Positions 5,373 to 54,950 of a DNA stretch of 64,000 bases are shown here, in pieces. Source of the DNA: an uncultured Gammaproteobacteria bacterium (lineage in GTDB: Bacteria > Patescibacteriota > Patescibacteriia > Magasanikbacterales > UBA922); NCBI GenBank assembly GCA_964522405.1, contig CAZFTR010000002.1:8032-72031 (forward strand). The letters run 5' to 3'. Within the stretch, counting starts at the first letter, position 1, and the number at the start of each line of letters is the position of its first letter. Both the position numbers and the translations under genes were made by a program. The notes under the pieces are model-generated. The model was not told the origin of the DNA. It did no database searches and was given only the letters and a program-made list of their open reading frames with translations.

Positions 5373-5408
5373 ATTCGATCATGGTGGGTGTGACGAAAAG
5401 TGTGACGA

Positions 5409-22423: not shown

Positions 22424-22428
22424 TATTT

Positions 22429-28865: not shown

Positions 28866-31655
28866 ATGAAAAAAACAAAATTTAGTTCTTTGCTAAGAAG
28901 AGTAAGAATGATTGGTTTGTTTGTGATTTTGCTGGCAGCCGGTCTTTTTTTTCAAACAGGCACGGTTAAGGCTGAAGTATGTACTTGGAGTACCTCTACT
29001 CCTGGTGCCAATATCAGTGATGCCAGCAGTTGGGCGGATTGTACTTTGAGTTCAGATGATACTTTGCTGTTTGGTGCCACAACAACAGCCGCAACTTGGG
29101 ATAGCGGTCTAATCCAAATTGCAGGTGTTTCGACTACACCGGAATATACAGGTACTATCACTTTGGGTACCAATGTTTCCAGTACAGGGGATGTGTTCAT
29201 TGGATCAGCTACCACTTTTGATCTTGGTGCTTACAGTCTTGATGTGGCCGGTGATTTTTTGAATTATGGGAATGTTAGTCAATCCGCAGGCTACACCGGG
29301 ATGAGCGGAAATTCCAATTTGGGTGGCTCGGGCAGGACCCAACTTTTCGCTTTTTTAGTTAATAATTCCAATACTGTTACTTTTTCCGGAGATGTTGTTG
29401 CTTCTTCAACCATAACAATCGGTAGTGGATCGACATTGATTTTGGGAGCCAATGGATTGCAATTTGGAGGTGCTCTCTCAAACTCCGGATCGATTACCCA
29501 AACTGCCAGTTCCACTTTCATGACCGGAGACGCTAACATTGGCGGCTCAGGAAGAACCCAACTTTTTGCTTTTACCGTAAGTCATTCAGATGGAGTAGAT
29601 GCTACTTTGGTGGGTGATTTGGTTGTTTCCTCCACCTTAACTATTGGTAGTGATGTTAATTTGGCTCTGGGAGCCAATGGATTGCAATTTGGAGGTGCTC
29701 TTGCCAACTCCGGATCGATTACCCAAACTGCCAGCTCCACTCTTATGACCGGAGACGCCAACATTGGTGGTTCAGGAAGAACCCAACTTTTTGCTTTTAC
29801 TATAAGCGCTTCCAACGGAGTAGACGCCACTTTGGTGGGTGATTTGATTGTTTCTTCAACATTGACTATTGGCAGTGATGTTAATTTGGCAATGGAAGCC
29901 TATGGACTTGAAGCAGGTGGTGCTATTACCAATTCCGGAGCCATAACTCAAACTGCCAGTTCAACAATCATGACCGGCAGTGCCAATTTGGGTGGTTCGG
30001 GAAGAACTCAATTTTTTGCCTTTACAGCTGACAATTCCAATACTGTTACTTTTGCCGGGGATGTTGTGGCTTCCTCAACTATCACAATCGGTAGCGGATC
30101 GGCATTGACTATGGGAGCCTATGGATTGCAATTTGGCGGTGCTCTCTCAAACTCCGGAACAATTACCCAAACTGCCAGTTCAACAATCATGACCGGCAGT
30201 GCCAATTTGGGTGGTTCGGGATCAAGCAGTTTCTTTAATTTAACCCTTAATGAGACCGTGACTTTGACCGGAAGTGTGACTTCCACCAATGCCTTTACTA
30301 ACAGTGGTGCTCTTACTATCTCTGACAGTGTAAATTTAGTTGCTTCAGGAACTTTTAATAACGATGGAACAATTACAGAAACAGGTGCTATTATACATGC
30401 TCTAACTTCTTCTAAGTTTACAGACACTTCCGGGACAGAAGTAACATCTTATAATACAGGTTCTGATACTTTATTTATTACGGTTGAAGATCATGACGGT
30501 AATCTCGATGCAACTGCGCTTGATACCATAACCGGATCAGTATATACAGCCAATGATGGTGTGGTAGATCAAGAAAGTATGACATTAACCGAAACAGGTG
30601 TTGATACAGGTGTTTTCCGTAGTTCAATCGGTTTTACGCCTTCTGCTCAGAAAACCCAGAACAATGGTAAAATTGAAGTTAATGGAGCCGGAAGTTTAGC
30701 TCTAACCTTTACTGATTCAAAGGACAGTACTGATACCGGAACTGATACGGCAAATTATACCGGTAGTTCGGTTGGTTCAGGTGGTAGTCCGGTTAGCAAT
30801 CCTGTCACGGAATCGACCACTGATGACACTGCCACTGAAACAAATACAACAGATACTACTACTGATGACAGTACTGCAGACACAACCACTGATGACACTG
30901 CTACTGATGAGGAGATAGTTGATGATGTTATCACTGATGATGCCACAGAAGAAGTTGTTGATCCTGAAGAAAAAGAAGCCGAGTCTGATCAAGAAGAATC
31001 AGCTCCGGAAGCAATTTCAGAAACATCATCATGCCCTCTTTTGACCGGACAGCCTTATAAAACACTTGATTCAAATACTGTTTATTATATAACTGAAAAT
31101 TGTACAAAATCAGTATTTAGAAGCGCAGAGAAATTTTTCTCTTATTTTACCTCCTGGGATGTGGTTAAAAATGCTTCACATAAAAATCTAAGAGAGATTT
31201 CGACTGATCAGCTTGGTTTTATGCCTTGGGGTCCTTTGTATGATCCTCAATTCGGAGCTTTGGTAAAGATTGCAAAAGATCCAAAAGTGTACTTGCTTTT
31301 AGGTAATGAAAAGTATTGGATTACATCAGAAGAGGTTTTTAATGCTTTGTATGATGGGCGATGGAATTGGATTGAAACAATTGATAAAAGTCTCTTAGAT
31401 AAATACGCAACCGGTTCTGAAATTAATTATCAGGATCATCATCCAAATTATTCTCTTATAAAATATCAAAATTCAAATAAAATATATCGCTTGGAGCCCG
31501 ATCCAAATGATAGTACAAAACAAGTAAAGCGACACATAATTGATGAAAAGACTTTTGTATCTCTTGGATTTAGATGGGATAGAATTGTGGATATTGCTGA
31601 CAGTGAAATATATGCTGATGGAAAAACTATTACTTTGGATGCGGGGGCTGAGTAA
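28866..31655 (+). CDS. secreted surface protein with ~73-aa tandem repeats, T/D-rich linker and C-terminal globular domain
   Basis: 929 aa with a signal peptide. Five copies of ...GANGLQFGGALSNSGSITQTASSTxMTGDANIGGSGRTQLFAFT..., then a Thr/Asp-rich acidic linker (TTDDTATETNTTDTTTDD...), then a ~230-aa C-terminal domain. Confidence 0.65.
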   Translation: MKKTKFSSLLRRVRMIGLFVILLAAGLFFQTGTVKAEVCTWSTSTPGANISDASSWADCTLSSDDTLLFGATTTAATWDSGLIQIAGVSTTPEYTGTITLGTNVSSTGDVFIGSATTFDLGAYSLDVAGDFLNYGNVSQSAGYTGMSGNSNLGGSGRTQLFAFLVNNSNTVTFSGDVVASSTITIGSGSTLILGANGLQFGGALSNSGSITQTASSTFMTGDANIGGSGRTQLFAFTVSHSDGVDATLVGDLVVSSTLTIGSDVNLALGANGLQFGGALANSGSITQTASSTLMTGDANIGGSGRTQLFAFTISASNGVDATLVGDLIVSSTLTIGSDVNLAMEAYGLEAGGAITNSGAITQTASSTIMTGSANLGGSGRTQFFAFTADNSNTVTFAGDVVASSTITIGSGSALTMGAYGLQFGGALSNSGTITQTASSTIMTGSANLGGSGSSSFFNLTLNETVTLTGSVTSTNAFTNSGALTISDSVNLVASGTFNNDGTITETGAIIHALTSSKFTDTSGTEVTSYNTGSDTLFITVEDHDGNLDATALDTITGSVYTANDGVVDQESMTLTETGVDTGVFRSSIGFTPSAQKTQNNGKIEVNGAGSLALTFTDSKDSTDTGTDTANYTGSSVGSGGSPVSNPVTESTTDDTATETNTTDTTTDDSTADTTTDDTATDEEIVDDVITDDATEEVVDPEEKEAESDQEESAPEAISETSSCPLLTGQPYKTLDSNTVYYITENCTKSVFRSAEKFFSYFTSWDVVKNASHKNLREISTDQLGFMPWGPLYDPQFGALVKIAKDPKVYLLLGNEKYWITSEEVFNALYDGRWNWIETIDKSLLDKYATGSEINYQDHHPNYSLIKYQNSNKIYRLEPDPNDSTKQVKRHIIDEKTFVSLGFRWDRIVDIADSEIYADGKTITLDAGAE
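29442..30200. repeat. coding tandem repeats (~219-225 bp period, 4-5 copies, imperfect)
   Basis: gggagccaatggattgcaatttggaggtgctct recurs at about 29442, 29661 and 30113, with a divergent copy near 29890. Not CRISPR: it is in-frame coding sequence with no spacer/repeat architecture. Confidence 0.7.
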
Positions 31656-31881: not shown

Positions 31882-32913
31882 ATGAAAAAAGCACTTATAA
31901 CCGGGATTACCGGACAAGATGGATCATATTTGGCTGAATTTTTACTAGACAAAGGATATGAAGTTCATGGAATTATCAGGAGATCCAGCAGTTTTAATAC
32001 AGAGAGATTAGATCATATTTATCAAGATCCTCATGAAAAGGGCAGACGATTGTTTCTTCATTATGGAGATCTTTCAGATTCCAGTAATATAAGTAGATTT
32101 ATTTCCAAACATCAACCAGATGAGATCTATAATCTCGGAGCTCAGAGTCATGTTCGAGTTAGTTTTGATATGCCTGAATACACCGGAGACGTTGTTGGTT
32201 TGGGAACTTTGAGACTTCTTGACGCTATTCGTGATTCAGGAATTAAAACCAAGTTTTACCAAGCATCTAGTTCTGAGATGTATGGAAAAGTTAAAGAAAC
32301 TCCTCAGAGTGAAACAACTCCTTTTTATCCACGTTCTCCATATGGTTGCGCCAAAGTTTTTGCTTTTTGGACAACTGTAAACTATCGGGAAAGTTATGAC
32401 ATGTTTGCTTGTAATGGAATTTTGTTTAATCATGAGTCGCCAAGAAGAGGTGGAACTTTTGTAACCAAGAAAATTACCAGAGGTTTAGTAAATATCAAAA
32501 ATGGCAAGCAGGAAAAACTTTTTATGGGTAATCTTGATTCAAAAAGAGATTGGGGTTATGCCAAGGAATATGTTGAGGCTATGTGGATGATGTTGCAGCA
32601 AGATAAGCCAGATGATTTTGTGATTGCCACTGGTGAGACTCATAGTCCAAGAGAGTTTATAGAAGAAGCATGTAGATTGCTTGATATTGACTTAGAGTGG
32701 CAGGGAAGTGGTGAAGAAGAAAAAGGAATTGATAAAAATACTGGAAAAGTCATTATTGAGATTGATCCGGTTTATTTCCGTCCAGCTGAAGTTGATTTGC
32801 TGGTTGGTGACATGACCAAGGCTCAAGAAAAACTGGGCTGGGAACCAAAAGTAAAATTCAAAGATCTGGTTAAGATTATGGTGGAGGATGAATTGGAAAA
32901 TTTTAAGAAATAA
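31882..32913 (+). CDS. gmd: GDP-mannose 4,6-dehydratase
   Basis: [47 protein letters not shown] and FNHESPRRG are nearly collinear with E. coli Gmd. Confidence 0.95.
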
Positions 32914-32915
32914 AT

Positions 32916-33848
32916 ATGATGCAAAAAAATTCAAAAATATATGTAGCAGGTCATAGAGGAATGGTTGGTTCTGCTATTGTGCGAAAGCTTGAAGCTGAGG
33001 GTTATACAAATATAATCAAAAAAACCAGTGCAGAATTGGATCTTCGTGATCAAAAAGCCACAGCTGAATTTTTTTCACAAGAAAAACCAGAGTATGTTTT
33101 TCTGGGGGCTGCAAAAGTTGGTGGAATTTTGGCGAATAAAGAAAGAAAAGCTGAATTTTTCTTTGATAATATGATGATTGAGTTAAATGTAATAGATGCT
33201 GCTCAGAAAAATGGTGTAAAAAAATTATGTTTCCTTGGTAGTAGTTGTATTTATCCGAAATTTGCAGAGCAACCAATAAAAGAGGAGTATTTGATGACAG
33301 GTCATCTTGAGCCTACCAATGATGCTTACGCTGTTGCTAAAATTGCCGGTATACAAATGTGCAAGGCATACTATGAGCAGTATGGTTTTGAATCAGTGCA
33401 AATTATGCCCTGCAATCTTTTTGGTCCTGGAGATAATTTTGATCCAAAAACCTCTCATGTTTTACCAGCGCTTCTTCGAAAAGTTGTTGAAGCAAAAGAA
33501 AACGGAGACAAAGAAATTGTCATGTGGGGAACTGGAAAACCAAAACGAGAATTTCTCTTTGTTGATGATGTTGCTGATGCCTGTGTATATCTCATGAACA
33601 GTGATGTTAAAAATGATCTATTTAATGTGGGAATGGGTGAGGATATTGCTATCAAAGATTTGCTTGAATTAATTTGTGAGATTGTTGGTTATGAAGGAGA
33701 GATTAAACATGATCTTGAAAAGCCAGATGGAACTCCTAGAAAATTATTGGATATTTCAAAATTACATTCTCTAGGTTGGAAACATCAAGTTGAACTTAGA
33801 GAAGGAATAGAAAAATTATATCAATGGTATTTAGAAAATAAAAAATAA
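32916..33848 (+). CDS. fcl: GDP-L-fucose synthase (GDP-4-keto-6-deoxy-D-mannose 3,5-epimerase/4-reductase)
   Basis: [30 protein letters not shown] and [20 protein letters not shown] are collinear with E. coli Fcl/WcaG. Confidence 0.95.
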
Positions 33849-33852
33849 TCTT

Positions 33853-34833
33853 ATGGCAAAAAAAGCACTTTTAACTGGAATTTGCGGTCAAGATGCAGCC
33901 TATATGGCAGAGTTGCTTATTAAGAAAGGTTATCAGGTTTTTGGTGTGGGGCGAAGCATAAGAGAAGATAGATTGTGGAGATTGGAAGAGCTGGGAATAA
34001 AGGACAAGGTTGAGTTGATAAATGGAGATATTACTGATTCTCTTTTTGTCTTTAATATATTCAAAGAGATTCAACCTGATGAATGTTATAATTTTGCCGC
34101 TGTTTCATTTGTAGGACTTTCTTGGAAGATCACTCAGACAACAAATTCTATAAATACAAATGGGGTTGTAAATATTTTGGATGCTATTAAGCAAAATTCT
34201 CCACATACCAGACTTTATCAGGCTGGAAGTTCTGAGATGTTTGGCAGACCTGATAATGACATTCAAGACGAAAGTACCAGATTTGATCCATGTAATCCCT
34301 ATGGAGTTTCAAAACTAGCTGCTTATAATTTTACAAAAATTTATCGCGAAGCATATGGGATATATGCTTCAAATGCTTTTTGCTACAATCATGAATCAGA
34401 GCTTCGTGGTATTGAATATGTAACTCGTAAAATAACTGATGGTGTAGCTCGTATTGCACTTGGTATCAGTGATGAAATTCGTCTTGGTAATATTGAGTCA
34501 AGAAGAGATTGGGGCTATGCAAGGGATTATGTAAAAGCTATGTGGCTTATGCTTCAGCAAGATCAACCTGGTGATTATGTTTTATCAACTGGTAAAACTC
34601 ACTCAATAAAAGAATTTCTAGCAGCTGCATTTGATAGAGTAGGAGTCGAAGATTGGCAAAAATATATTGTTGAAGATGAAAGATTTTTCCGTCCTCTTGA
34701 GCCATTTTTATTGCAGGGAAATTCTGCAAAAGCAAAGGAAGTTCTGGGTTGGGAGCCAGAAGTTAGTTTTGAAGAATTAGTTTCTAGGATGGTAGATTTT
34801 GATTTGAAAAATTTAAAATCAAAAAATGTTTAA
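33853..34833 (+). CDS. Gmd-family NDP-sugar 4,6-dehydratase paralog (possibly Rmd-like reductase)
   Basis: MAKKALLTGICGQDAAYMAELLIKKGYQVFGVGRS and CYNHESELRG are Gmd-like catalytic motifs. At 326 aa it is shorter than Gmd. Confidence 0.75.
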   Translation: MAKKALLTGICGQDAAYMAELLIKKGYQVFGVGRSIREDRLWRLEELGIKDKVELINGDITDSLFVFNIFKEIQPDECYNFAAVSFVGLSWKITQTTNSINTNGVVNILDAIKQNSPHTRLYQAGSSEMFGRPDNDIQDESTRFDPCNPYGVSKLAAYNFTKIYREAYGIYASNAFCYNHESELRGIEYVTRKITDGVARIALGISDEIRLGNIESRRDWGYARDYVKAMWLMLQQDQPGDYVLSTGKTHSIKEFLAAAFDRVGVEDWQKYIVEDERFFRPLEPFLLQGNSAKAKEVLGWEPEVSFEELVSRMVDFDLKNLKSKNV

Positions 34834-35896
34834 GAACAAAGCTTTTAAAATTATTAGTATTCTTTCAAAAAATATCCTAAATTCCAATAGGATTATTTTT
34901 GTTTCAGAGCAGGTAAATTGGGTTATAAAAGATATTTGTGAAAATGTAGTTGAGACTCTTCGAAAAACCAAAAAAATTAAAATCGGAATTACTTTTAGTC
35001 AAGTTTTTCTGAAGAATAAGATTTTGCATTTTGCAACTGCCGGAATGATTTTTGATCGAAATGGCAAGATTAGAAATTTTCACCCTTCAAATAAATCAAT
35101 TTTAACTTGGTATCATTTTGAGCCAGATGATAAAAGAGCAAAGTTTATTCCAGAGATTGCCGAGAAGGTTGATATTTTTCATACAGCATCTGAAACAACC
35201 AAGAAAGAATTAATTAAATATGGAGTTACAGAAGAAAAAATCATAATTGTTCCTATTGGAATTGATTTAAAAGTATTTAAGCCGTGCAACAAAGAAGAAA
35301 AAAGTAAATTACGTGAAAATTTAGGAATTGCCAAAGATAAAATCGTTATTGGTTCTTTTCAAAAAGATGGAAGCGGTTGGGGAGAGGGGAATGAGCCAAA
35401 ATTAATCAAGGGCCCGGATATTTTTTGTGATACAGTAGAAGAGCTGGCAAGAGATTATGATATTCATGTTTTATTGACTGGGCCGGCCAGAGGTTACGTA
35501 AAAAAGCGCTTAGATCAAGCTGGAATTTCCTATACTCATAAGTACCTTGATAATTATTTGGATATTGTTGATTATTATCATATGCTTGACCTCTACATTA
35601 TCAGCTCAAGAGTAGAGGGTGGACCAAAAGCTTTTCTAGAATCAATGGCCTGTAAAATTCCTTTTGTCTCGACAAGTGTTGGAATGGTAACGGATATAAT
35701 TGAGAGTGGTATAAATGGCTCTGTTGTTAGTAGTTTTGATGCGCAGGAACTCTATGAAAAATCAAAAGAATTATTGGATAATAAAAATTTAAAAGACAGA
35801 CTTATTGAGCAAGGTTTTGAAGATGTTAGAAAATATGATTGGAGTGTGGTTGCAGATCTTTATCATCAAAAATTATATCTACCATTAATCAAATAG
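34826..35896 (+). CDS. glycosyltransferase family 4 (GT4)
   Basis: SSRVEGGPKAFLESMACKIPFVSTSVG is the E-x7-E motif. Confidence 0.75.
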   Translation: MFKNKAFKIISILSKNILNSNRIIFVSEQVNWVIKDICENVVETLRKTKKIKIGITFSQVFLKNKILHFATAGMIFDRNGKIRNFHPSNKSILTWYHFEPDDKRAKFIPEIAEKVDIFHTASETTKKELIKYGVTEEKIIIVPIGIDLKVFKPCNKEEKSKLRENLGIAKDKIVIGSFQKDGSGWGEGNEPKLIKGPDIFCDTVEELARDYDIHVLLTGPARGYVKKRLDQAGISYTHKYLDNYLDIVDYYHMLDLYIISSRVEGGPKAFLESMACKIPFVSTSVGMVTDIIESGINGSVVSSFDAQELYEKSKELLDNKNLKDRLIEQGFEDVRKYDWSVVADLYHQKLYLPLIK

Positions 35897-35899
35897 TTT

Positions 35900-36889
35900 A
35901 TGAAAATTCATATTTATTATCCTCTTAAAAAAGGCCCATGGGGTGGGGGAAATCAATTTTTGAGAGCACTGCAAAAAGAATTCAAAAAAAGTGGTAATTA
36001 TGCTGAGGCAATAGAAGATGCTGATGCTGTTTTGTTCAATAGTCATCATCAACTCTCAGGAGTTGTTAAGTTAAGAAGAAAGCATCCAAATACATTATTT
36101 GTTCACAGAATTGATGGTCCTTTATCAAAAATTAGAGGTACTTGGCTCAGTAAAATGACAGATAAGGTAATTTTTTATTTCTCTGATGTGCTTTCTCAGA
36201 TTACTATATTACAAAGTGGTTGGAGTAAAAAGGTGAGTGAAGAATTAGGATATAGACAAAAAGAATTTGATACGGTTATTTTCAATGCCAGTGATGAGCT
36301 AATATTTAATCGAGAGGGTAAAAAAGAATTCAAGCCACAAGAAAAAATTAAGATTATTGCTACCAGTTGGTCAGCAAATATGGGCAAGGGTTTTGATGTT
36401 TATGACTACATGGATAAGAATCTTGATTTTGATAAGTATCAATTTACTTTTATTGGAAATACACCTATTAAATTTGAGAACATCAAACATATTGAGCCTG
36501 TACCGAGCGAAGAGCTTGCTAAATATCTAAAAGATTCTGATATTTTTATTACTGCTTCTAAAAATGATCCATGCTCTAACTCTCTTATTGAGGCTCTAAG
36601 TTCTGGATTGCCAGTCATTGTTAGAAATGATGGAGGTCATCCTGAATTGATGAGAGGTGGTGGGGAGAGCTTTGATAAAATTGAAGAAGTTATTGAAAAA
36701 CTTGAAAAAGTAGCAGCAAATTATGAAAATTATCAGTCAAATATTCCGGAGTTTGATATGGAAAAAACTGCAAAATTATATTATGCTGCTATTGAAAAAG
36801 CTTTTGAGAGTTCTCTTAAGCCAAAAAAAGTAGGAACATTTAAGAGTCTGCTTATATTGCTCAGTCTGAAGATGTTGAGACTTGCCTAA
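35900..36889 (+). CDS. glycosyltransferase-like protein (GT4/GT1-related C-terminal domain)
   Basis: ASKNDPCSNSLIEALSSGLPVIVRNDGGHPEL resembles the GT-B C-terminal nucleotide-sugar-binding region. Confidence 0.55.
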   Translation: MKIHIYYPLKKGPWGGGNQFLRALQKEFKKSGNYAEAIEDADAVLFNSHHQLSGVVKLRRKHPNTLFVHRIDGPLSKIRGTWLSKMTDKVIFYFSDVLSQITILQSGWSKKVSEELGYRQKEFDTVIFNASDELIFNREGKKEFKPQEKIKIIATSWSANMGKGFDVYDYMDKNLDFDKYQFTFIGNTPIKFENIKHIEPVPSEELAKYLKDSDIFITASKNDPCSNSLIEALSSGLPVIVRNDGGHPELMRGGGESFDKIEEVIEKLEKVAANYENYQSNIPEFDMEKTAKLYYAAIEKAFESSLKPKKVGTFKSLLILLSLKMLRLA

Positions 36890-38986
36890 CTATATTCCAA
36901 ATTTATAGGGAGGTTGATATTTGAGTTCTATAAGATTTTCACCTTTTAGAAGGGGTAATGCCATGAAGCTGTGATATGCTGGTATTACCTCTTTTTTTTC
37001 TTGGTTTATGTAGGCGCTCCAGAAGGGGTGGTAATTGTTGCTGATAATTAGAATTGTCGGGTTTTCCAGGTTGGCTTTTAAGACTATTTGATCAGGGCTG
37101 TATTTAATCAATTCTGGTTTTAATTTTGTTTCTACCAGCGATTCTATGTTGAGATCTCCAAGATCTTTTTCTTCAAGATAGACCTCCTGTGACAAAGTAT
37201 CAAATGTACTGGTTGAAAGTGTATTTAATAACTCATCTTTATTCTCAAATACCCTTACTTTACCAACCAAAAAGAAACGATCAAGAACATTTTTATTTTC
37301 ATAAATTAAAAGTTTTTTACCAGTAAAATTTTCTTTTATTCTGTTTGAAATTCCCTTTGTTCTAATGTGATCGATAGTAGCGCTAGGTGATTCAATTTTT
37401 GAAAATCCTGGAGCTGAAACTTTCAAATATGAGGCAAGGTATTTTACATTGGCAAGAGACAGTAGATTTTGATTGATAAATTTAGTTGAGTCTTGCATGA
37501 ATTCTTCTTTTTCTTGTTCGCTTGCTTGCCAGAAAAAATAATAACTGTGTTTTGGTTTTTTCTTAAATTTTGCCATTTGGTTGAAATACTCTGCAAATCT
37601 TTTGGAGGTCATATTAATATCTCCATCAATGCTTTCAAATCCATTCATATTTAAGATTGATGTTCTTAGGTCTGACTCCTCATTACTAATCAGCGCGACT
37701 CTAAATGGATTTTTTTCTTCTTGGGTTTTTTGTTTTAGTGTATCGAGATCAGGGCTATAAGTATTTGCATGGTAGCTTCCGGATTTTAGCCAAATTTTTG
37801 CATGTCTTGTTTTTAGGGCTAAATTTGAAAATACTAAAAGCACGATGAAAACTGAAACAAAAATACTGTATAGAAGATATTTTTTTTGAGATTTTTCTGA
37901 TACGAGATATCCTTTTAAACTGTTTATCGCTATTGCCGCGGCTATTGATGCGAAAAAAGGAACTAATAAACTGAAACGATCAAAGCCAAAATCAGCTAGA
38001 GGGCCAAGGTAGTCTCCAAATTTGGATGATAATGGTCTGTAGTATTGCACAACAAAAATTCCCAAGAAAACCAGAATTGATGTTCTTTTGAAATAGCGAT
38101 TTTTGATATCAAAGAATTTTGATCCTAGGATTGCTAAGGCGATTATGAGGAGTGAAAGATAGTTTTGCACTAATAATTCTTTTACAGTTACTAGATAATT
38201 TATTAGATTTGCATTGTAATAGCCACCAACACGATTTGAGAGTGGGGTGTTAGTTATCATGCTCCAAACAGCTGGTAAGTGGGCAATAATAGAAGCAAAG
38301 CTAAATAGAAATAAGATCAAAAGTTTTTTTACTGAATAATCTTTTTTTACAAAAACAAACCAGAGAAAAATAGCCACAAGAGCAAATGGAAGCGTAAAAA
38401 CAACTGATGAGGCAAAACCAAATAAAATTCCAAGCAGAATGGCATACAGATATTTAATTTTCTCTTGAATATTGAAAATTTCCTGAAGATAGAATATTGA
38501 AAAAGGAACAAAGGACAGACCAATCATGAATGGTATTATGTCTATAAGAATTAAGGATTGGGCAAAGATAAAAGAGGCAAGTAGAGATGCAGCTTTTTTG
38601 AGTTCAAGTTGTTTGTGACAAATACGAAATGTAAAATATGATCCAATAAAAATACTCAAAAAAAGCACTGTCCCATAAGCAAGCCAACTCGGAACTAAAT
38701 TAAATATCATACTACTAAGATGTATATTGAGCAGATCATTGGCAATTCTATCAATTCCCCCGGCAAAAAGAGGATCCCAGTAAGTTATCCCATGTGTTGC
38801 TATGTTTGACGCCAGTGACTGAAATCTTGGTATGAATATGTCTAAATTATCTCCAACTCGCACATAAGAAAATGGTCCAAGAAAAATATATTCAAATACT
38901 GTGAATAGAGAAAATAAAAGAAAAAAAGTTTTTTCTCTTTTGGAGAAGAAGCTTTTTATTTTCCGTGCAATATCGGCTCTAGTCAT
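36890..38986 (-). CDS. polytopic membrane protein, YfhO/GT-C-like (candidate extracytoplasmic glycosyltransferase)
   Basis: 698 aa with at least 12 predicted TMs in the N-terminal two-thirds and a soluble C-terminal domain. It is the last gene of the minus-strand ddh operon, which begins with a GtrB/DPM1-like GT2. Family assignment is by architecture only. Confidence 0.5.
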   Translation of the reverse strand: MTRADIARKIKSFFSKREKTFFLLFSLFTVFEYIFLGPFSYVRVGDNLDIFIPRFQSLASNIATHGITYWDPLFAGGIDRIANDLLNIHLSSMIFNLVPSWLAYGTVLFLSIFIGSYFTFRICHKQLELKKAASLLASFIFAQSLILIDIIPFMIGLSFVPFSIFYLQEIFNIQEKIKYLYAILLGILFGFASSVVFTLPFALVAIFLWFVFVKKDYSVKKLLILFLFSFASIIAHLPAVWSMITNTPLSNRVGGYYNANLINYLVTVKELLVQNYLSLLIIALAILGSKFFDIKNRYFKRTSILVFLGIFVVQYYRPLSSKFGDYLGPLADFGFDRFSLLVPFFASIAAAIAINSLKGYLVSEKSQKKYLLYSIFVSVFIVLLVFSNLALKTRHAKIWLKSGSYHANTYSPDLDTLKQKTQEEKNPFRVALISNEESDLRTSILNMNGFESIDGDINMTSKRFAEYFNQMAKFKKKPKHSYYFFWQASEQEKEEFMQDSTKFINQNLLSLANVKYLASYLKVSAPGFSKIESPSATIDHIRTKGISNRIKENFTGKKLLIYENKNVLDRFFLVGKVRVFENKDELLNTLSTSTFDTLSQEVYLEEKDLGDLNIESLVETKLKPELIKYSPDQIVLKANLENPTILIISNNYHPFWSAYINQEKKEVIPAYHSFMALPLLKGENLIELKYQPPYKFGI

Positions 38987-40283
38987 ATTTTTTCATAAAA
39001 TTTTTCATGGTTTCAGAAATAAATTCTATCATCTGATCTGTAATTCCCGGATAGCAACCAATCCAAAAAGTGTCTAGCATAACTTTGTCAGTGTTTTTCA
39101 AATCACTTACAGATCTGTATTCAATATCTCGCTCTACAAAATATGGCTGTTTGGTTATGTTTCCGGCAAACAAGTATCTGGTGGCAATTTTATTTTCATT
39201 TAGATGCGCTACAATATCTTTTCTTTTGAAAGGCGCTGAATCTTTCACTGTTAAAAGAAAACCAAACCAACTTGGTTCTGATTCTTCGAGCCAAGTTGGA
39301 AGATGTAGATAGTTTTGATATTTTTCAAAGACTTGATATATTTTCTTAAAATTTTCTTTTCTTTTTTCTACAAATCCATCCAGTTTTTCAAATTGAGCCA
39401 GTCCCAATGCTGCTTGCATGTCAGTTATTTTAAGATTGTATCCAACTTCTGAATAGATATATTTATGATCATATCCTTCTGGCAGATTTCCAAGCTTCCA
39501 ACAAAATCTTTTATTGCAAGTATTGTCTTGTCCGGTTTTGCACCAGCAGTCACGACCCCAATCTCGAAATGATTTTACGATTTTGTATAATAATGAATTA
39601 TCAGTAAAAACAGCTCCACCTTCTCCCATGGTTATATGATGTGCTGGGTAAAAACTGCAGGTAGCAATATGACCAAATGTTCCAGTTTTTTTTCCATCAT
39701 ATTCTGAACCAAGAGCGTCACAATTATCTTCTATAAACCAAAGATCATTTTGATCACAAATTTCTCTAATTTCCTTGAGGTGATATGGATTACCCAAAGT
39801 GTGTGCCAGAAAAATTGCTTTTGTTTTTGGTGTAATTGCTTTTTTTATTTCATCTATCTTTGCATTGTAGGTTCCAAGATCAATATCAACAAATACTGGA
39901 ATCAAACCATATTGGATTATTGGATTTACAGTTGTGGGAAATCCGGCTGCCACACTTATAACCTCATCACCTGGTTTTAGCTGTTTTTCTTTTAGTTTTG
40001 TGGAGGTAAGAGCTGAAAAGGCAAGTAGATTTGCAGAAGAGCCTGAGTTTGTCAGAGCTGTATATTTTGTTCCAATCCATTTGCTTAATCGCTGCTCAAG
40101 TAGATCTGAAAATCTACCCTCAGTCCACCAACCATCAAGAACTGCCTCTACCATATTGTAGATCTCTTGTTCATCAAATATTTTCCCGGAAATTCTTATC
40201 GGTGATTCACCGGGTTTAAATTCTTGTTTTGGAAATTTTTGATCATGGATTTTTTTAAGTATATCTTTTAGTTCTTGGTTCAT
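38979..40283 (-). CDS. rfbH: CDP-6-deoxy-D-xylo-4-hexulose-3-dehydrase (E1, PMP-dependent, DegT family)
   Basis: Long collinear identity to Salmonella RfbH/DdhC: VISVAAGFPTTVNPIIQYGLIPVFVDID, SFYPAHHITMGEGGAVFT, FRDWGRDCWC...DNTCNKRF and YDHKYIYSEVGYNLKITDMQAA. Confidence 0.95.
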   Translation of the reverse strand: MNQELKDILKKIHDQKFPKQEFKPGESPIRISGKIFDEQEIYNMVEAVLDGWWTEGRFSDLLEQRLSKWIGTKYTALTNSGSSANLLAFSALTSTKLKEKQLKPGDEVISVAAGFPTTVNPIIQYGLIPVFVDIDLGTYNAKIDEIKKAITPKTKAIFLAHTLGNPYHLKEIREICDQNDLWFIEDNCDALGSEYDGKKTGTFGHIATCSFYPAHHITMGEGGAVFTDNSLLYKIVKSFRDWGRDCWCKTGQDNTCNKRFCWKLGNLPEGYDHKYIYSEVGYNLKITDMQAALGLAQFEKLDGFVEKRKENFKKIYQVFEKYQNYLHLPTWLEESEPSWFGFLLTVKDSAPFKRKDIVAHLNENKIATRYLFAGNITKQPYFVERDIEYRSVSDLKNTDKVMLDTFWIGCYPGITDQMIEFISETMKNFMKKYD

Positions 40284-40345
40284 ATTTTTTTATTTAATTA
40301 CTCGCTTATTTTAGCAAAAAAAAACAAGCTCGGCAATGCTTGTTG

Positions 40346-40380
40346 GCCGCCTGCCTGACTGGAATCGTCAGGCAGGCGGC
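40346..40380 (-). terminator. GC-rich terminator hairpin following the GC-rich NUDIX gene
   Basis: Perfect 14-bp stem GCCGCCTGCCTGAC with loop TGGAATC and GTCAGGCAGGCGGC. On the minus strand it is followed by a second small hairpin CAAGC-attgccga-GCTTG and T9. Confidence 0.7.
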
Positions 40381-40411
40381 TCATGCTGCTGCGTTACTTG
40401 CTCTCGACATC

Positions 40412-40897
40412 CTAGTCGATTTGGGCCAGTGCGATCACTTCGTGGTGATGCGAAACCGTGTCCATTGGCAGGTGGCGTGGGTCTACCCACCCTCCCGGCA
40501 TCTTGGGGTTCATGTCGAGTTCACCGAGAGTAACCTTGATGACCTGGCCGTAGAACCAGCCACGCTCCTCCTGATAGAAGAAGCCGGACTTGAGAGATCC
40601 GCGGCCATCGAGATCCAGGCCGAGCTCTGCTTGCCCGAGCCGGATCAAAGCCTTGTGGAAGTCCTCGCCAGATCGAAGAACCGTGCCCGGACAGTGCAGC
40701 TGTCCAGCGTACGAATCCCCACTTCGGCGGCGAGTCATCCAGACTTTTGGGTGATGCTGAACGGTTTTGACGACCACGACCTCAATGCACATTGTTGGTA
40801 CCAGCCGCGCAATGGCATTGAAGAGTTCAGGTCCGAGTGGATCTTTCGGATCGAGTTGCTTAAGGAACGCAGCAGCAGCTTCTCTCGTGTCGATCAT
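40412..40897 (-). CDS. GDP-mannose mannosyl hydrolase-like NUDIX hydrolase (Gmm/WcaH-like), GC-rich xenolog
   Basis: 161 aa from ATG 40897; the ORF-track start at 40954 is a TTG extension into AT-rich DNA. PGTVLRSGEDFHKALIRLGQAELGL closely resembles E. coli Gmm [25 protein letters not shown]. It is homologous to the adjacent native gene (ELFNAIARL, YAGQLHCPGT, ERGWFYGQVI). Roughly 60% G+C against about 30% for its neighbour. Confidence 0.8.
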   Translation of the reverse strand: MIDTREAAAAFLKQLDPKDPLGPELFNAIARLVPTMCIEVVVVKTVQHHPKVWMTRRRSGDSYAGQLHCPGTVLRSGEDFHKALIRLGQAELGLDLDGRGSLKSGFFYQEERGWFYGQVIKVTLGELDMNPKMPGGWVDPRHLPMDTVSHHHEVIALAQID

Positions 40898-40980
40898 TTG
40901 TTGACTCCTTGAGCTGCTGGATTTTAGACTAGCATAATTGTATAAAAAAATCAAGCCTACAGCCTGATTTTGTTTAGATT

Positions 40981-41484
40981 TTATTTGATCTTGTTTTTTA
41001 CTGCTGGCAAGATCCTATCTTTGTGATGTTTTACAAGTGGAACAGGTAATTTATTTATGGGCCACCACTGACCAGCTTTTGTTGGATCAGACTTTATTTC
41101 TATAGTATATATAATTGATTGAAACCAGCCACGTGCTTCATCATGAAAAAAATGCCCCACGTATTTGGGTTGGTTTTTGATAGTTGTACCCATTTCATTT
41201 TTTAAAACCCTTTTGATTGAATCTATTTCAAGTTCACCTTTTCTGATAATTGTTCCTGGGCAGTGCCATTCGCCGGCGTAGCAGTCTGAATTTGATCTTT
41301 TTGAAAGCCAGACATATGTTTGATCTTTTTCTTTTTTTAGAACAACTGCTTCAACTGTGGAGGTAGTGTATAATCTTGCTATCGCTTCAAACAATTCTTT
41401 TCCCAGATTTTCTTTTGGTTTGATTTGGTTGAGAATTTGAGCAGCTTGTTTTTGTAGATTTTCTGACATAAGATTTGTATTCAT
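40981..41484 (-). CDS. GDP-mannose mannosyl hydrolase-like NUDIX hydrolase (Gmm/WcaH-like), native AT-rich copy
   Basis: 167 aa from ATG 41484 (the ORF-track start is TTG). ELFEAIARLYT, YAGEWHCPGTIIRKGELEIDSIKRVLKNEMG, EARGWFQSIIYTIEI. Overlaps the rfbG stop by 1 nt. Confidence 0.75.
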   Translation of the reverse strand: MNTNLMSENLQKQAAQILNQIKPKENLGKELFEAIARLYTTSTVEAVVLKKEKDQTYVWLSKRSNSDCYAGEWHCPGTIIRKGELEIDSIKRVLKNEMGTTIKNQPKYVGHFFHDEARGWFQSIIYTIEIKSDPTKAGQWWPINKLPVPLVKHHKDRILPAVKNKIK

Positions 41485-42557
41485 CAATTATTACTATTAA
41501 AAAATAAATCAATTTGTTTCTTTGTGGTATTTTTTATATTTTCATCTTCATAAAAATCTCTATACCAGTCCATGGTTAGTCGGAGAGTTTCTTCCAAGTT
41601 CAGTTTTGGAGACCAGGCAAGTTTTTCTTTTGCCTTTCCAATATCAAGTCTTAGTATTCCTGCTTCATGTCTTTTTTTATCCGGAATAATTTTGTAAGAG
41701 CCTTTTTGAGAAGTGCTTATTGCTTTTTTTACCAGTTCTTCCACGCTACAACTTTCTTGATCTTCCGGGCCAAAATTCCAAGCTCCTACAATTTCTTTTT
41801 CCCCTTGAAAAAGCTTTTTAGCTAAAATCATGTATCCGTTTAGTGGTTCGAGAACATGTTGCCAGGGGCGAATAGCATTTGGATTTCTTATTATTATTTC
41901 TTGATCATCCTCATAAATAGCTTTGATAATATCAGGAATCAATCTATATTCTCCCCAGTCTCCGCCACCAATCACATTTCCAGATCTGGCTATGGCTATA
42001 AGTGCCTCGTGACCTGCATCAGGTTTTTCAGGGTTGAAAAATGATTGAATATAAGATTGGGTAGTTATGTCTGCCGCTGCCTTGCTGGCACTATAGGGAT
42101 CATAACCTCCAAGAGCATCTTCTTCCTTGTAAGCGATTTCTTGTTCCAGATTTGCATAAACTTTGTCTGTGGTAATGATAACAGCAGATTTTACAGTTTT
42201 TGAATTGCGCAAGGCTTCCAGTAAATTGGCTGTGCCGATTACATTGCTTGAGTAAGTTTCTAGTGGATTTTCATAGCTTGGTCTGACAAGTGCTTGAGCT
42301 GCCAGATGAAAAACTATTTCTGGTTGATGTTCTTGAATTAAGTCATTTAGTTTTTCAAAATTTCGAATATCAACAATAGAGTGTTTAATTTTCTTTTCTA
42401 AATCTAAAGCTTCGAACATGCTATGCTTGCCGGTCATTGGTAGAGAGATGCCAACTACATCTGCACCCCAATTTGTCAAAGTATAACTAAGCCAGGATCC
42501 CTGAAATCCGGTATGGCCGGTAATTAATATTTTTTTATCTTTGAAAAAATCTTTCAT
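41484..42557 (-). CDS. rfbG: CDP-glucose 4,6-dehydratase
   Basis: ILITGHTGFQGSWLS, IVFHLAAQALVRPSYENPLETYSSNV, GGYDPYSASKAAAD, SGNVIGGGDW and IIRNPNAIRPWQHVLEPLNGY are collinear with Salmonella RfbG/DdhB. Confidence 0.95.
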   Translation of the reverse strand: MKDFFKDKKILITGHTGFQGSWLSYTLTNWGADVVGISLPMTGKHSMFEALDLEKKIKHSIVDIRNFEKLNDLIQEHQPEIVFHLAAQALVRPSYENPLETYSSNVIGTANLLEALRNSKTVKSAVIITTDKVYANLEQEIAYKEEDALGGYDPYSASKAAADITTQSYIQSFFNPEKPDAGHEALIAIARSGNVIGGGDWGEYRLIPDIIKAIYEDDQEIIIRNPNAIRPWQHVLEPLNGYMILAKKLFQGEKEIVGAWNFGPEDQESCSVEELVKKAISTSQKGSYKIIPDKKRHEAGILRLDIGKAKEKLAWSPKLNLEETLRLTMDWYRDFYEDENIKNTTKKQIDLFFNSNN

Positions 42558-42560
42558 ATT

Positions 42561-43466
42561 CTATTCTAGGATTTTCTGCAATCCATCATCAAGTGATGTT
42601 TTTGCTTTCCAGTTGGTCTTTGTATTATTTTTTATATCAGCTACTGAATTCATGATTTCATTTTCTCGATAGGGGAGAGCGCCCCAGTTTAAATTTGATT
42701 TACTTTTGATTTCTCTTTTTAAAACCTCAACCACTTTTTTTATTGATTTTGAATGTCCACTTCCAATTTCAAATTGTCCAAAGTTTTCTAGACTGTCAAT
42801 ATTTTTTATGACGCTGGCAAAAGCTTGGGCAACATCATCAACATATATAAAATCTCTTTTTTGCTCACCAGGAGTTAGATCAATTGATTTGCCTGCTCTA
42901 AGTTTTTTAATTATAAATGGAATAAATTTATGATCATGATCATCTGGCCCATACATCTGGAATATGACCAGGTTTATCAGTTTAGTCTTACTGTCCTTGG
43001 TAACTTTTTTGGCATTTTCCAGAAATTCTTTTTTTGATTTTACATATGCAGATTCGTTTCCAGTAAATTTTATTTTTTCATTGAAAAAAGTATCAGCATT
43101 TATAAAGGCTTTTAAACCATTTTTAATTCCAAGTCCAAGTAAGTTTTTTGGTAGATCATAATTTACATGGTAAATGTCTTGGTCTGCTTCCTTGTTTCTG
43201 CCATAGCAAGTTGCTGTATGAATTATAAAATCAATATTTTCTTTTTGAAAAATTTCTGCCAAAGATCCATCTTCTATATCTATAAATTCCGGTTTGTTTT
43301 GCAAAACAAATTTATTTATTTTAGCAAGCTTTGAATTTTTACGCTTTAGGATAATTAATTTATATTGATCATCTTCCAAAAATAATTTTACAATCCTACT
43401 ACCTAAAAAACCAGTACCTCCGGTGATGAGTACTGTTTTTTTGCTATTTACTCCCATATTTTCCAT
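42561..43466 (-). CDS. NAD(P)-dependent SDR epimerase/reductase, CDP-abequose/paratose synthase-like
   Basis: VLITGGTGFLGSRIVKLF Rossmann motif and YVKSKKEF (YxxxK). Similar in size and position to RfbJ/RfbS in ddh clusters. Confidence 0.7.
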   Translation of the reverse strand: MENMGVNSKKTVLITGGTGFLGSRIVKLFLEDDQYKLIILKRKNSKLAKINKFVLQNKPEFIDIEDGSLAEIFQKENIDFIIHTATCYGRNKEADQDIYHVNYDLPKNLLGLGIKNGLKAFINADTFFNEKIKFTGNESAYVKSKKEFLENAKKVTKDSKTKLINLVIFQMYGPDDHDHKFIPFIIKKLRAGKSIDLTPGEQKRDFIYVDDVAQAFASVIKNIDSLENFGQFEIGSGHSKSIKKVVEVLKREIKSKSNLNWGALPYRENEIMNSVADIKNNTKTNWKAKTSLDDGLQKILE

Positions 43467-44218
43467 TTTGGATCTTCTAGCCAGAGTTTTTCAAGATGTT
43501 TTTTGTCACGAAGAGTATCCATTGCTTTCCAAAAGCCCTCATGTTTAAATGCTGACATTTCTCCATCTTTTGCTAGATTTATCAATGGTTCTTGCTCCCA
43601 CATAACATCCTCTTTTGGGATATAGTCAAAAACTTGCGGTTTAAGCACAAAAAAACCACCATTTATCCAAGTGTTCTTATTATCAATTTTTTCAGCGAAT
43701 TTTTCTACTTTTCCATCATCTTCTATGTCCAGTGTTCCAAAACGTCCGTCTGGTTGTACTGCTGTGACAGTTGCCAATTTTTCTTGTTTTTTATGAAATT
43801 CAACAAGTTCCGAAATGTTTATATTTGCTACACCATCCCCGTATGTAAGCATAAAATCTTCTCCGTCTACATATGATTGCACAAGTTCTAATCTTCTGGC
43901 TGTTGATGATTTATTTCCAGTTTCTACAAGAGTAACTTTCCAATCTTCTTGGTGATTTTTATGGACAGTTTTTTGATTTGTTTTCAAATCAATAGTTATG
44001 TCTGAGCTGTGAAGATAGTAATTGGCAAACCATTCTTTGATCATATAACCTTTGTATCCAAGACAGATGACAAAATCATTGAAACCATAGTGTGAATATA
44101 TTTTCATGATATGCCAGAGAATAGGCATTCCACCGATTTCTACCATTGGCTTTGGTTTTGTATATGTTTCTTCTGATAGGCGTGAACCAACACCACCTGC
44201 AAAAATTACAACTTTCAT
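43448..44218 (-). CDS. rfbF: glucose-1-phosphate cytidylyltransferase
   Basis: MKVVIFAGGVGSRLSEETYTKPKPMVEIGGMPILWHIMKIYSHYGFNDFVICLGYKGY...WEQEPL...AFKHEGFWKAMDTLRDK is collinear with Salmonella RfbF/DdhA. 19-nt overlap with the downstream SDR gene. Confidence 0.95.
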   Translation of the reverse strand: MKVVIFAGGVGSRLSEETYTKPKPMVEIGGMPILWHIMKIYSHYGFNDFVICLGYKGYMIKEWFANYYLHSSDITIDLKTNQKTVHKNHQEDWKVTLVETGNKSSTARRLELVQSYVDGEDFMLTYGDGVANINISELVEFHKKQEKLATVTAVQPDGRFGTLDIEDDGKVEKFAEKIDNKNTWINGGFFVLKPQVFDYIPKEDVMWEQEPLINLAKDGEMSAFKHEGFWKAMDTLRDKKHLEKLWLEDPKWKIWE

Positions 44219-44221
44219 ATT

Positions 44222-44923
44222 TTATTTTTTAGAAAATTTTGATTTTAAGAGATTTTTGAAAAATTCAATACAAACATTGAATCTGACATTTGATTTTCCA
44301 TGTTTTCTAGGATGAAAGTCAATGGGTAACTCAATGATTTGTTCAGGCTTAAGATTTTTAACAGCATGAATCATGATTTCTGCATCTATGAACCAATCAT
44401 CTGATTTTAGTGGAAGCATGGCTTTGAGTAGATCTTTTCTAAAGATTTTTGGACCGGAATTAATATCTTTTATTTTGCCGCCATGAATTAATTTAAATAA
44501 TACTTGGTAAATAGAGCTGATAAAGACTCGATATTGTCCATCGTATCGTTTTCTGCGATAAGTTTTTACAAACTTAATATTAGGATTTTCAAATTTATCC
44601 AGCATTTCTCTAACAATGTGAGCATCAAACTGGTTATCTCCCCATATAAATCCACAAATATCACTGTCTAATTGGTTAAGACATTGCTTTACACCATATC
44701 CGTATCCTTGGTTTACTTTAATTTTGATATGGCTGACACCATCATATTTTTCTTCTAGATTTTTTACCACCTCTGCCGTGTCATCTGTTGAGCCATTATC
44801 TATGATTATAATTTTTCCATCTATATTTGTTTTTTGCTTGAAAACATCTGCCAGAGCTTTTACTACTTCTGGCATGTTTTTTGATTCATTGTAAGAGAGA
44901 ACGCCTATTGAACAGCTGGTCAT
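44222..44923 (-). CDS. GT2 polyprenol-phosphate glycosyltransferase (DPM1/GtrB/ArnC-like)
   Basis: 233 aa. IGVLSYNESKNMPEVVKALADV...IIIDNGSTDDTAEVV with a small single-domain GT2 architecture. First gene of the ddh operon. Confidence 0.8.
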   Translation of the reverse strand: MTSCSIGVLSYNESKNMPEVVKALADVFKQKTNIDGKIIIIDNGSTDDTAEVVKNLEEKYDGVSHIKIKVNQGYGYGVKQCLNQLDSDICGFIWGDNQFDAHIVREMLDKFENPNIKFVKTYRRKRYDGQYRVFISSIYQVLFKLIHGGKIKDINSGPKIFRKDLLKAMLPLKSDDWFIDAEIMIHAVKNLKPEQIIELPIDFHPRKHGKSNVRFNVCIEFFKNLLKSKFSKK

Positions 44924-53782: not shown

Positions 53783-53847
53783 AAATATCTTGAGTAGAGA
53801 TATTTTTTTTAAAATTCATTTAAAATTTAGCACATAGGCAGGGGGTC

Positions 53848-53860
53848 GTGTCACTCTCCT
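53848..53860. repeat. left 13-bp inverted repeat GTGTCACTCTCCT bracketing GC-island 3
   Basis: Perfect reverse complement of 54951-54963 (AGGAGAGTGACAC). An imperfect extension to about 22 bp shares CCCC. Confidence 0.8.
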
Positions 53861-53877
53861 CGATCCCCCTTGGTAGC

Positions 53878-53920: not shown

Positions 53921-53921
53921 C

Positions 53922-54926: not shown

Positions 54927-54950
54927 TTCTGATCCTCTTTGAGGGGTTTT

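Follow-up and report, generated by a model that had tools for sequence, protein, structure and literature searches.

A GC-rich Nudix gene, probably acquired by horizontal transfer, beside its AT-rich homologue in a CDP-dideoxyhexose operon of a patescibacterial contig

How does an AT-rich sugar-nucleotide operon come to hold two homologous genes side by side, one composed like the genome around it and the other far richer in G+C (guanine plus cytosine), and what might the second copy do there? The question is raised by two adjacent minus-strand genes, here called Nudix A and Nudix B, within a 64-kb stretch of contig CAZFTR010000002.1 (assembly GCA_964522405.1; GTDB lineage Patescibacteriota) that we refer to as the window. 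A sequence-only reading of this DNA had described the pair as neighbouring NUDIX homologues, one native and one foreign, inside a CDP (cytidine diphosphate)-dideoxyhexose operon. The joint explanation that fits best, and that we consider likely, is that the resident gene A and its neighbour B belong to one small, uncharacterised Nudix family, and that B, an intact and probably functional member, came in by horizontal transfer.

The homology of the two genes is clear. BLASTP aligns B with A at 39% identity across 153 residues (E 1e-37, 114 bits), both proteins narrowly exceed the Pfam PF00293 NUDIX gathering cutoff of 21.1 (B 24.7 bits, A 24.8 bits), and the motifs that had been quoted for the pair are present as ELF[NE]AIARL, YAG[QE][LW]HCPGT and [EA]RGWF, with AELGL in B and NEMGT in A at the AELGL site. 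The operon runs in the order GT2, ddhA/rfbF, an SDR (short-chain dehydrogenase/reductase) gene, ddhB/rfbG, A, B, ddhC/rfbH and a gene for a DUF6044/YfhO-like membrane protein (Table 1). The proposed CDP-dideoxyhexose setting holds, in that ddhA, ddhB and ddhC all score above their NCBIfam equivalog cutoffs, and by these scores they are taken as a genuine CDP-3,6-dideoxyhexose (ddh/rfb) set; ddhD, for an E3 reductase with Fer2, FAD and NAD domains, was not found among the scanned open reading frames (ORFs) of the window. The ATG of A shares one base with the stop codon of ddhB (TGATG), an arrangement in which A would be translationally coupled to ddhB. Because of this overlap and its native codon usage, A is assigned as an original member of the operon and as native to the genome. 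B is freestanding, with a spacer of 83 nt upstream, which holds an AT-rich hairpin and T7 run after A, and one of 128 nt downstream.

Table 1. Coordinates of the genes, compositional islands and sequence signals discussed in the text (window numbering).
Feature	Position	Strand	Evidence or remarks
ddhA/ddhB/ddhC operon, with GT2 as its first gene	36890-44923 (operon span)	-	
ddhA/rfbF, glucose-1-phosphate cytidylyltransferase	43448-44218	-	NCBIfam TIGR02623 equivalog, 390.8 bits (cutoff 300)
SDR gene between ddhA and ddhB	42561-43466	-	
ddhB/rfbG, CDP-glucose 4,6-dehydratase	41484-42557	-	TIGR02622, 462.5 bits (cutoff 278)
Nudix A, native AT-rich member, 167 aa	40981-41484 (ATG 41484, stop 40981)	-	
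AT-rich hairpin and T7 downstream of A, terminator-like	40938-40974	-	Inverted repeat I9, arms 40944-40956 / 40962-40974
AAGGAG Shine-Dalgarno sequence, 7 nt before the ATG of B	40905-40910	-	Read from sequence
GC-rich island, 593 bp, 57.3% G+C, holding B and its 3' untranslated region (UTR)	40328-40920		Two-state hidden Markov model (HMM) segmentation
Nudix B, GC-rich probable xenologue, intact, 161 aa	40412-40897 (ATG 40897, stop 40412)	-	
16-nt inverted repeat, 15/16 complementary	40384-40399 (B 3' UTR) / 40862-40877 (B codons 7-12)	-	Inverted repeat I3
Perfect 14-bp GC hairpin in the B 3' UTR, assigned to the foreign DNA	40346-40380 (arms 40346-40359 / 40367-40380)	-	Inverted repeat I4
Second hairpin, 7 bp (AACAAGC/GCTTGTT), then T9, at the island boundary	40314-40344 (hairpin 40344-40323)	-	Terminator scan
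Promoter-like site (TTGCCG, 17 nt, TAAAAT, with upstream TG) across the junction before ddhC	40308-40336	-	Consensus scan only, 9/12 matches
ddhC/rfbH, CDP-6-deoxy-D-xylo-4-hexulose 3-dehydrase	38979-40283	-	NF011936 equivalog, 699.8 bits (cutoff 423)
Island 1, 64% G+C, G+C at third codon positions (GC3) 0.89	5324-8566 (gene 5409-8507)	-	1032-aa cysteine-repeat lipoprotein
Island 3, 66% G+C	53837-54903 (gene 53922-54926)	-	334-aa protein, antisense to its neighbours, without Pfam match

The compositional contrast between the copies, first estimated as about 60% against 30% G+C, is 57.0% for B and 34.7% for A. At the first, second and third codon positions (GC1, GC2 and GC3) the values for B are 0.673, 0.395 and 0.642, and the GC3 of A, 0.268, falls inside the native range. 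The 28 native genes of the window have a GC3 of 0.244 +/- 0.027 with a maximum of 0.309, which leaves B some 15 standard deviations from the native mean. Relative synonymous codon usage (RSCU) correlates with that of the native genes at +0.64 for A and -0.31 for B, and GARP residues (glycine, alanine, arginine and proline) make up a fraction of 0.29 of B but only 0.19 of A. The higher GARP fraction goes beyond synonymous change alone and therefore points to long residence in a GC-rich genome. The island delimited by segmentation lies in a locus of 33% G+C, and the composition of B together with its GC-rich 3' UTR fits a long stay in a genome of about 55-60% G+C and a later transfer of the unit as a whole. 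In all four respects, G+C content, GC3, codon usage and amino-acid composition, the claim that a foreign, GC-rich homologue adjoins a native copy is borne out.

The contig is metagenome-derived and its composition changes abruptly, as would be expected of an assembly chimera or of contaminating reads fused into an AT-rich contig. However, the exact B protein is encoded on independently assembled Logan contigs from two runs, SRR8146440 and SRR8146441, which are 100% identical to the window across 32876-41473 (8.6 kb) and 37725-43272 (5.5 kb), and each of which spans both junctions. Because two independent assemblies match both junctions exactly, the switch in G+C is not an assembly artefact. 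L005 and L006 give the same kind of backing to island 3, another GC-rich segment of the window, comparable islands occur in unrelated public assemblies, and the insert is an exact gene unit homologous to its neighbour; a chimera has next to no probability.

A tandem duplication would also place two homologues side by side, either with B turning GC-rich in place or with an A-like gene leaving for a GC-rich lineage and later returning. In its favour, when 1.84 billion representative proteins were searched exhaustively with phmmer, only 256 relatives were recovered at E <= 1e-3, and the neighbour A was the best non-self match (105.6 bits, the next reaching 91.3 bits); A and B are also reciprocal best BLASTP matches in the set tested. 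Yet the two are exclusive sisters in only 10 of 200 neighbour-joining bootstraps (5%), and their four rare residues in common are not in excess of those that B has in common with other family members (mean 3.3 +/- 2.0). P0085 and P0013_d2 are the proteins that have most such residues in common with B, and for A it is P0019; B also leans weakly towards GC-rich-type proteins with YAGLLHCPGT...RLG (P0031, P0060, P0070 and P0085), and its nearest clade in the tree, weakly supported, consists of the GC-rich-type proteins P0031, P0060, P0070 and P0053. Moreover, a GC3 shift of 0.40 and the accompanying GARP shift are limited to 590 bp, for which there is no known in-place mechanism, and the GC-rich stretch runs on into the non-coding 3' UTR. 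The pair are therefore not taken as recent duplicates, and tandem duplication, which was rejected on the bootstrap support and the rare-residue counts, is very improbable.

The limits of the foreign segment can be set from the change-point support intervals, 40321-40345 and 40879-40933. At the 5' side the switch in G+C had been placed exactly at the ATG of B, which fits the second interval, although any finer placing is beyond resolution and the change-point itself lies at 40920; likewise the AAGGAG Shine-Dalgarno sequence exists, but it may fall inside the island. At the 3' side the 14-bp hairpin is present as described, whereas the T9 run that had been attached to it comes after the separate 7-bp hairpin, which lies between the two. 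In the minimum-free-energy fold the two hairpins merge into a single extended structure (-52.2 kcal/mol, z = -6.8) with the 14-bp hairpin as its core, and Rfam gave only sub-threshold chance matches over it. The island boundaries include this 3' UTR hairpin, which upholds the proposal that an ORF with its own GC-rich 3' hairpin was inserted as a unit. The hairpin after A forms an 11-bp stem in the fold, with a z of only -1.7 for the entire spacer, and the 3' half of its terminator sequence (GCTTG[A/T]T-run, direct repeat D3) is repeated by the 3' half of the 7-bp hairpin. Should the promoter-like site across the junction before ddhC be active, the insertion may have left the operon with a new or retained promoter to counter the polar effect of the terminator that came with it.

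What kind of protein was acquired can be judged from the family as a whole, in which 60 relatives give a coherent alignment. Conservation computed over 147 family domains identifies as near-invariant (B numbering) E39, R57, Y63, H68, P70, G71, R75, E78, R86, E91, R112, G113, W137, L143, P144 and H151, all of which are kept in A and in B, and a family HMM built without these two proteins scores them at 186.6 and 150.7 bits, respectively. The AlphaFold model of B has a pLDDT (predicted local distance difference test) of 94.3 and the alpha/beta/alpha fold of Nudix proteins. With its near-invariant residues kept and its fold confidently predicted, B is probably functional. The Nudix box of the family reads GE-x7-R-[LIV]-x-x-[RK/other]-E-[FL]-G (RLGQAELGL in B and RVLKNEMGT in A) and departs from the canonical GX5EX7REUXEEXGU with its three catalytic glutamates, in that the 'RE' Glu and the first 'EE' Glu are never seen. 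There is no dedicated Pfam or NCBIfam model for the family. PADLOC and PHROGs gave generic Nudix matches only (PDC-S07 at 19-27 bits; phrog_1198), which were rejected as evidence of a defence or phage role.

In at least eight independent loci a family gene stands at most two genes away from an NDP (nucleoside diphosphate)-hexose 4,6-dehydratase-type gene: in the window, in Candidatus Staskawiczbacteria (L003), in Saccharibacteria (L004) and in public assemblies (L008, L010-L012, L013, L023 and L024), and these loci usually also hold a sugar-1-phosphate nucleotidyltransferase and sugar-modifying enzymes. A three-sequence alignment scan of the genome collection gave two loci only, those of the Staskawiczbacteria and Saccharibacteria genomes. 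An overlap like that of A and ddhB is seen in L013 between the family gene and the dehydratase gene; L007 and L025/L026 are exceptions to the linkage. Mainly because of this linkage we propose an NDP-sugar substrate: family members would bind the NDP-hexose that the nucleotidyltransferase and 4,6-dehydratase encoded next to them produce, and would hydrolyse it. As in Gmm of E. coli, the metal site would be a reduced one, in which GX5E keeps its Glu and REUXEE only its final Glu, and it would be accompanied by the conserved Arg57, Arg75, Arg86, Arg112, His68 and His151. An enzyme of this kind would keep the CDP-sugar pool trimmed or proofread, and to this B would bring a second specificity or a second subunit, so that redundancy is not required. 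The name of GDP (guanosine diphosphate)-sugar hydrolase that B had been given has no basis here, because the neighbouring genes make CDP-sugars.

The same degenerate box would suit a family that is non-catalytic, acting as a sensor of NDP-sugars or nucleotides or as a regulatory subunit, like NrtR-type domains. Two of the three REUXEE glutamates are missing family-wide, and the best PDB sequence matches (2fml, 3gz8, 3gz5 and 5bs6) are NrtR-type or AraR-type Nudix domains. However, the proteins are single domains of about 165 aa that carry neither a DNA-binding nor any other effector domain, the family strongly conserves Arg, Glu and His residues, and exactly such degeneracy is found in Gmm, which is nonetheless catalytic. 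A non-catalytic family is on balance unlikely.

The family also recurs in more than one copy. Paralogue pairs or triples are found in L009, L010-L012 and L013, and five of the top 150 matches (P0004, P0005, P0006, P0013 and P0039) are fusions, about 380-410 aa long, in which the family domain occurs twice. These pairs and fusions suggest a heterodimeric or pseudo-dimeric working unit, and because they recur, two copies may cooperate, so that the description of B as redundant is not established. Taken further, this would make the family a dimer of two different subunits, of which B has replaced one or supplies the second, by xenologous displacement or as an obligate partner. Gmm is itself a dimer, and a GC-elevated copy stands near an AT-typical paralogue in L010 and L013 just as in the window. 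Most pairs and fusions elsewhere, on the other hand, combine a canonical with a divergent member (216 and 91 bits in L010, for example), whereas A and B, at 187 and 151 bits, are both canonical and closer to the first than to the second domains, and we regard an obligate partnership as doubtful.

Is the import of a GC-rich copy peculiar to this operon? We compared the GC3 of family genes with that of the neighbouring genes, locus by locus. Against the 0.64 of B and the 0.24 of its neighbours stand 0.68 and about 0.38 in L008, 0.435 and 0.29 in L010, 0.54 and 0.33 for the second copy in L013, 0.65 and 0.31 in L023 (P0003, the second-best match to B), 0.55 and 0.28 in L024 (the fused P0004), and 0.71 and 0.52 in L025. 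The GC-rich single-gene pattern was thus seen in seven of about 16 family genes examined, from 12 loci, and in L010 and L013 an AT-typical paralogue lies close to the GC-elevated copy. The GC-rich family copies are mutually deeply divergent (40% identity or less). Within the clade that carries the motif PYGTELFNALARLTVSVAIEAVCLR, G+C is graded (0.41 in L003, 0.47 in L010 and 0.53 in L013), which fits transfer followed by amelioration. Some of these loci hold further accessory genes of raised G+C: L008 has a HAD gene, L013 has HAD and HpcH genes, and L024 has a radical-SAM gene. The recurrence of such single-gene islands, of this family and of other accessory genes, in AT-rich, CPR-like genomes could reflect sustained directional flow from unsampled GC-rich partners, or a mechanism that maintains G+C, and might be combined with a heteromeric NDP-sugar hydrolase of a Nudix family not described before, formed by A and B; we offer this larger scheme tentatively and doubt that it will hold as a whole. 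If the flow were real, whole transcription units would pass from partners that are possibly the hosts into the surface-glycan loci of episymbionts, and the 5' and 3' inverted repeats of the island-3 family, described below, would be cassette ends. A GC-rich source population is not sampled among 15 billion proteins.

Several points weigh against an acquired and functional hydrolase. As regards origin, neither a donor nor a close relative of B was found among the 1.84 billion representatives, in which no match exceeds about 41% full-length identity, and because there is no donor, horizontal transfer rests on composition rather than on a tree nested in a donor clade. The family tree is star-like and unresolved, so that the phylogeny of the GC-rich copy, from which the sequence-only reading had expected a donor, names none, and no empty-site relative that would show the pre-insertion state is at hand. 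Word-indexed homologue searches with B and with A each retrieved the query alone, and viral contigs held no family relatives. As regards expression, a sigma-70-like consensus scan detected no promoter upstream of B on the minus strand, where a 'TATACAAT-like' promoter had been read, and the hairpin after A might block read-through into B, so that expression of B is putative. As regards function, hydrolysis is inferred from fold, motif and gene neighbourhood alone; no conserved His of the family aligns with the catalytic His124 of Gmm, in a C-terminal global hhalign alignment of low confidence; and the family profile favours NrtR-/MutT-type chains over Gmm (2fml at E 5.6e-11 against Gmm at E 1e-3). 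Some proteins of the NrtR group are ligand-binding regulators rather than enzymes.

If transfer is accepted, a donor of moderately high G+C (about 55-60%) would have supplied a segment of about 590 bp, which entered the spacer between A and ddhC in an operon that formerly read GT2, ddhA, SDR, ddhB, A, ddhC and membrane protein. The segment would comprise the ORF, a 3' UTR with strong structure and perhaps the ribosome-binding site of B. Illegitimate recombination is the probable route, since the insert comes with no recombinase gene, no terminal inverted repeats and no clear target-site duplication. No integrase or transposase domain occurs in the scanned ORFs of at least 150 aa in the window, no terminal inverted repeats were found at the ends of the B island, and the sole flanking direct repeat is a T-rich 13-mer contributed by two terminators. 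Nor are the features of an integron gene cassette present, the segment having a single hairpin with GTTGGCC only and lacking a GTTRRRY core, an array and an integrase.

Two other single-gene islands, islands 1 and 3, were called in the window by the same HMM. The island 1 protein has Dicty_CTDC repeats (120 bits) and a lipobox-like N-terminus; an inverted repeat around this island was dismissed, its 10-bp core lying within chance expectation. By eye, the island 3 protein may carry an IMPase-like DPxDGT motif. The codon usage of the two islands is closely similar (RSCU r = 0.91, GC3 0.89), whereas B correlates with them at 0.52-0.54, and therefore at least two donors or two times of transfer are indicated. 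Island 3 is flanked by 21-nt inverted repeats, 53848-53868 and 54943-54963 (GTGTCACTCTC...GAGAGTGAC). In an unrelated metagenome contig (L014, 4960-6060) a 47%-identical homologue of the island 3 protein has the core GTGTCACTCTC in its 5' UTR and the complement of GTGTCACTCTC inside a G-rich 3' hairpin (G5-6...C5-6); this homologue is likewise GC-rich (59%, with flanks of 39%), and AT-rich homologues of the protein lack the GTGTCACTCTC motif. The repeats could represent either a conserved pairing between the 5' and 3' ends of the mRNA or the ends of a cassette.

These repeats raise the possibility that B, too, travelled as the passenger of a small mobile cassette, either integron-type or resembling a miniature inverted-repeat transposable element (MITE) with terminal inverted repeats, instead of by illegitimate recombination. 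Island 3 lies in the same window and the core of its repeats is found again on either side of the homologue in the unrelated contig L014, B has an inverted repeat of 15/16 positions from its 3' UTR to its 5' coding region, with an end-to-end complementarity score of 13 (maximum of 11 among 42 native genes), and a 13-nt T-rich direct repeat stands on both sides of its island. But the inverted repeat of B lies off the island ends with one arm within coding sequence, the direct repeat consists of low-complexity terminator DNA, and end complementarity in the other GC-elevated family copies is not above background. The islands are moreover dispersed and form no array, a canonical attC core is lacking, and the window shows no integrase or transposase domain in the ORFs scanned. 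A terminal-inverted-repeat cassette was rejected for B, on the arm inside the coding sequence and the lack of such repeats in other GC-elevated copies, and a cassette of either kind is quite improbable.

The whole window is a surface-glycan locus, with many glycosyltransferases, two Wzy_C proteins, a flippase-type protein, methyltransferases and sugar-nucleotide enzymes. The Wzy_C genes are tandem paralogues (O-antigen ligase/polymerase-like, 737 and 678 aa, 20210-24465) and resemble a 747-aa Wzy_C-TPR protein of the Staskawiczbacteria locus L003, a likeness that is among the grounds for regarding the source as probably CPR-like. An ECF (extracytoplasmic function)-type sigma factor (Sigma70_r2, r4_2) is encoded within the locus at 13167-13757. 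Two long ORFs, of 929 aa (28866-31655) and 1503 aa (15491-20002), have no Pfam or NCBIfam match; G+C is mildly raised in them, to 42-46% at 29001-31000 and 39-40% at 15491-20002, and the HMM called no island there.

Taken alone, the event in the window is ordinary horizontal gene transfer (HGT): it is real and clean, yet it is one more transfer into a glycan locus. Its value lies partly in its clarity, B being a single-gene transfer into the middle of an operon whose transferred unit can be delimited as an ORF with a 3' UTR hairpin. Beyond this, an uncharacterised Nudix family is tied to NDP-hexose 4,6-dehydratases and has the unusual active-site degeneracy of Gmm; if its members hydrolyse CDP- or other NDP-sugars at carbon, Gmm-type chemistry would extend beyond GDP-mannose. 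GC-elevated copies beside AT-typical paralogues recur in AT-rich, probably episymbiotic, genomes, and surface-glycan loci may be a favoured landing site for foreign genes, which would be relevant to host recognition and to tracing the partners in DNA exchange. The novelty is modest, and consists in a dehydratase-linked, uncharacterised Nudix family with a Gmm-type degenerate box and in the recurring GC-rich imports beside resident copies.

Among known systems the family is most readily compared with Gmm/NudD/WcaH of E. coli (PDB 1rya and 2i8t), the closest structural neighbour. Both are Nudix proteins of about 160 aa encoded within a nucleotide-sugar operon, both have an N-terminal helix ahead of the Nudix fold, and both show the same degeneracy of the Nudix box (R-L-x-x-x-E-[LF]-G), the family never having Glu at two positions where Gmm also lacks it. 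Aligned by hhalign with Gmm, whose sequence was checked against PDB 1rya, the family matches at 90% probability over residues 24-106, the N-terminal helix included, and B E39, R57, R86 and E91 pair with Gmm D22, R37, R65 and E70, while B IRLGQAELGL pairs with the Nudix-box stretch of Gmm. The B R57, R86 and E91 positions are each conserved in at least 94% of the 147 family domains, so that the modified box of Gmm (RLxxAELGL, with Arg37, Arg65 and Glu70 serving the metal and the leaving group) is recognisable in the family. Unlike Gmm, however, B and A score only 17.2 and 15.5 bits against NCBIfam NF011963 (PRK15434), far below the cutoff of 146, and sequence identity is 18%. His124 of Gmm falls on variable columns, and Arg52 stands opposite B V73, with the conserved R75 two residues on, in a global alignment whose C-terminal half is of low confidence. 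The family has conserved residues of its own (His68, Arg75, Arg112 and a C-terminal HH(R) motif with His151), it occurs in paralogue pairs and fused double domains, and its neighbours make CDP- or other NDP-hexoses (here rfbF, rfbG and rfbH) and not GDP-mannose or GDP-fucose (gmd, fcl and manC). The family thus resembles Gmm in the reduction of its active site without being a member of Gmm/WcaH; the earlier phrase 'Gmm/WcaH-like' is sound as a functional analogy and fails as a statement of family membership.

By profile-sequence matching to the PDB, the nearest chains are instead COG1051/NrtR-type ADP-ribose-binding Nudix proteins (2fml, 3gz8, 3gz5 and 5bs6, at E 5.6e-11 to 5.5e-5), which have a similar C-terminal motif, L-x-x-x-x-x-H-x-x-I-I; one family member is annotated 'ADP-ribose pyrophosphatase YjhB' in one source. 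Unlike the NrtR-type proteins, the family has no winged-helix DNA-binding domain, and its neighbourhood is one of NDP-sugar synthesis rather than NAD metabolism. A further parallel is offered by the EvaA-type NDP-hexose 2,3-dehydratases, which have a double Nudix fold and act on the product of a 4,6-dehydratase: here too Nudix-fold proteins stand beside NDP-hexose 4,6-dehydratases, and the family has tandem double-domain forms.

As an event, the acquisition of B belongs with HGT in O-antigen and other surface-glycan loci. Individually transferred genes and genomic islands have already been reported in Patescibacteria genomes (PMC12455944), and because such single-gene transfers are documented, the general phenomenon is known. 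The likeness is that of a lone foreign gene of atypical composition in a glycan locus. Unlike classical glycan-locus transfer, however, the import here is far richer in G+C than its recipient and lies beside a resident homologue, and the same Nudix family repeats the pattern in other AT-rich contigs.

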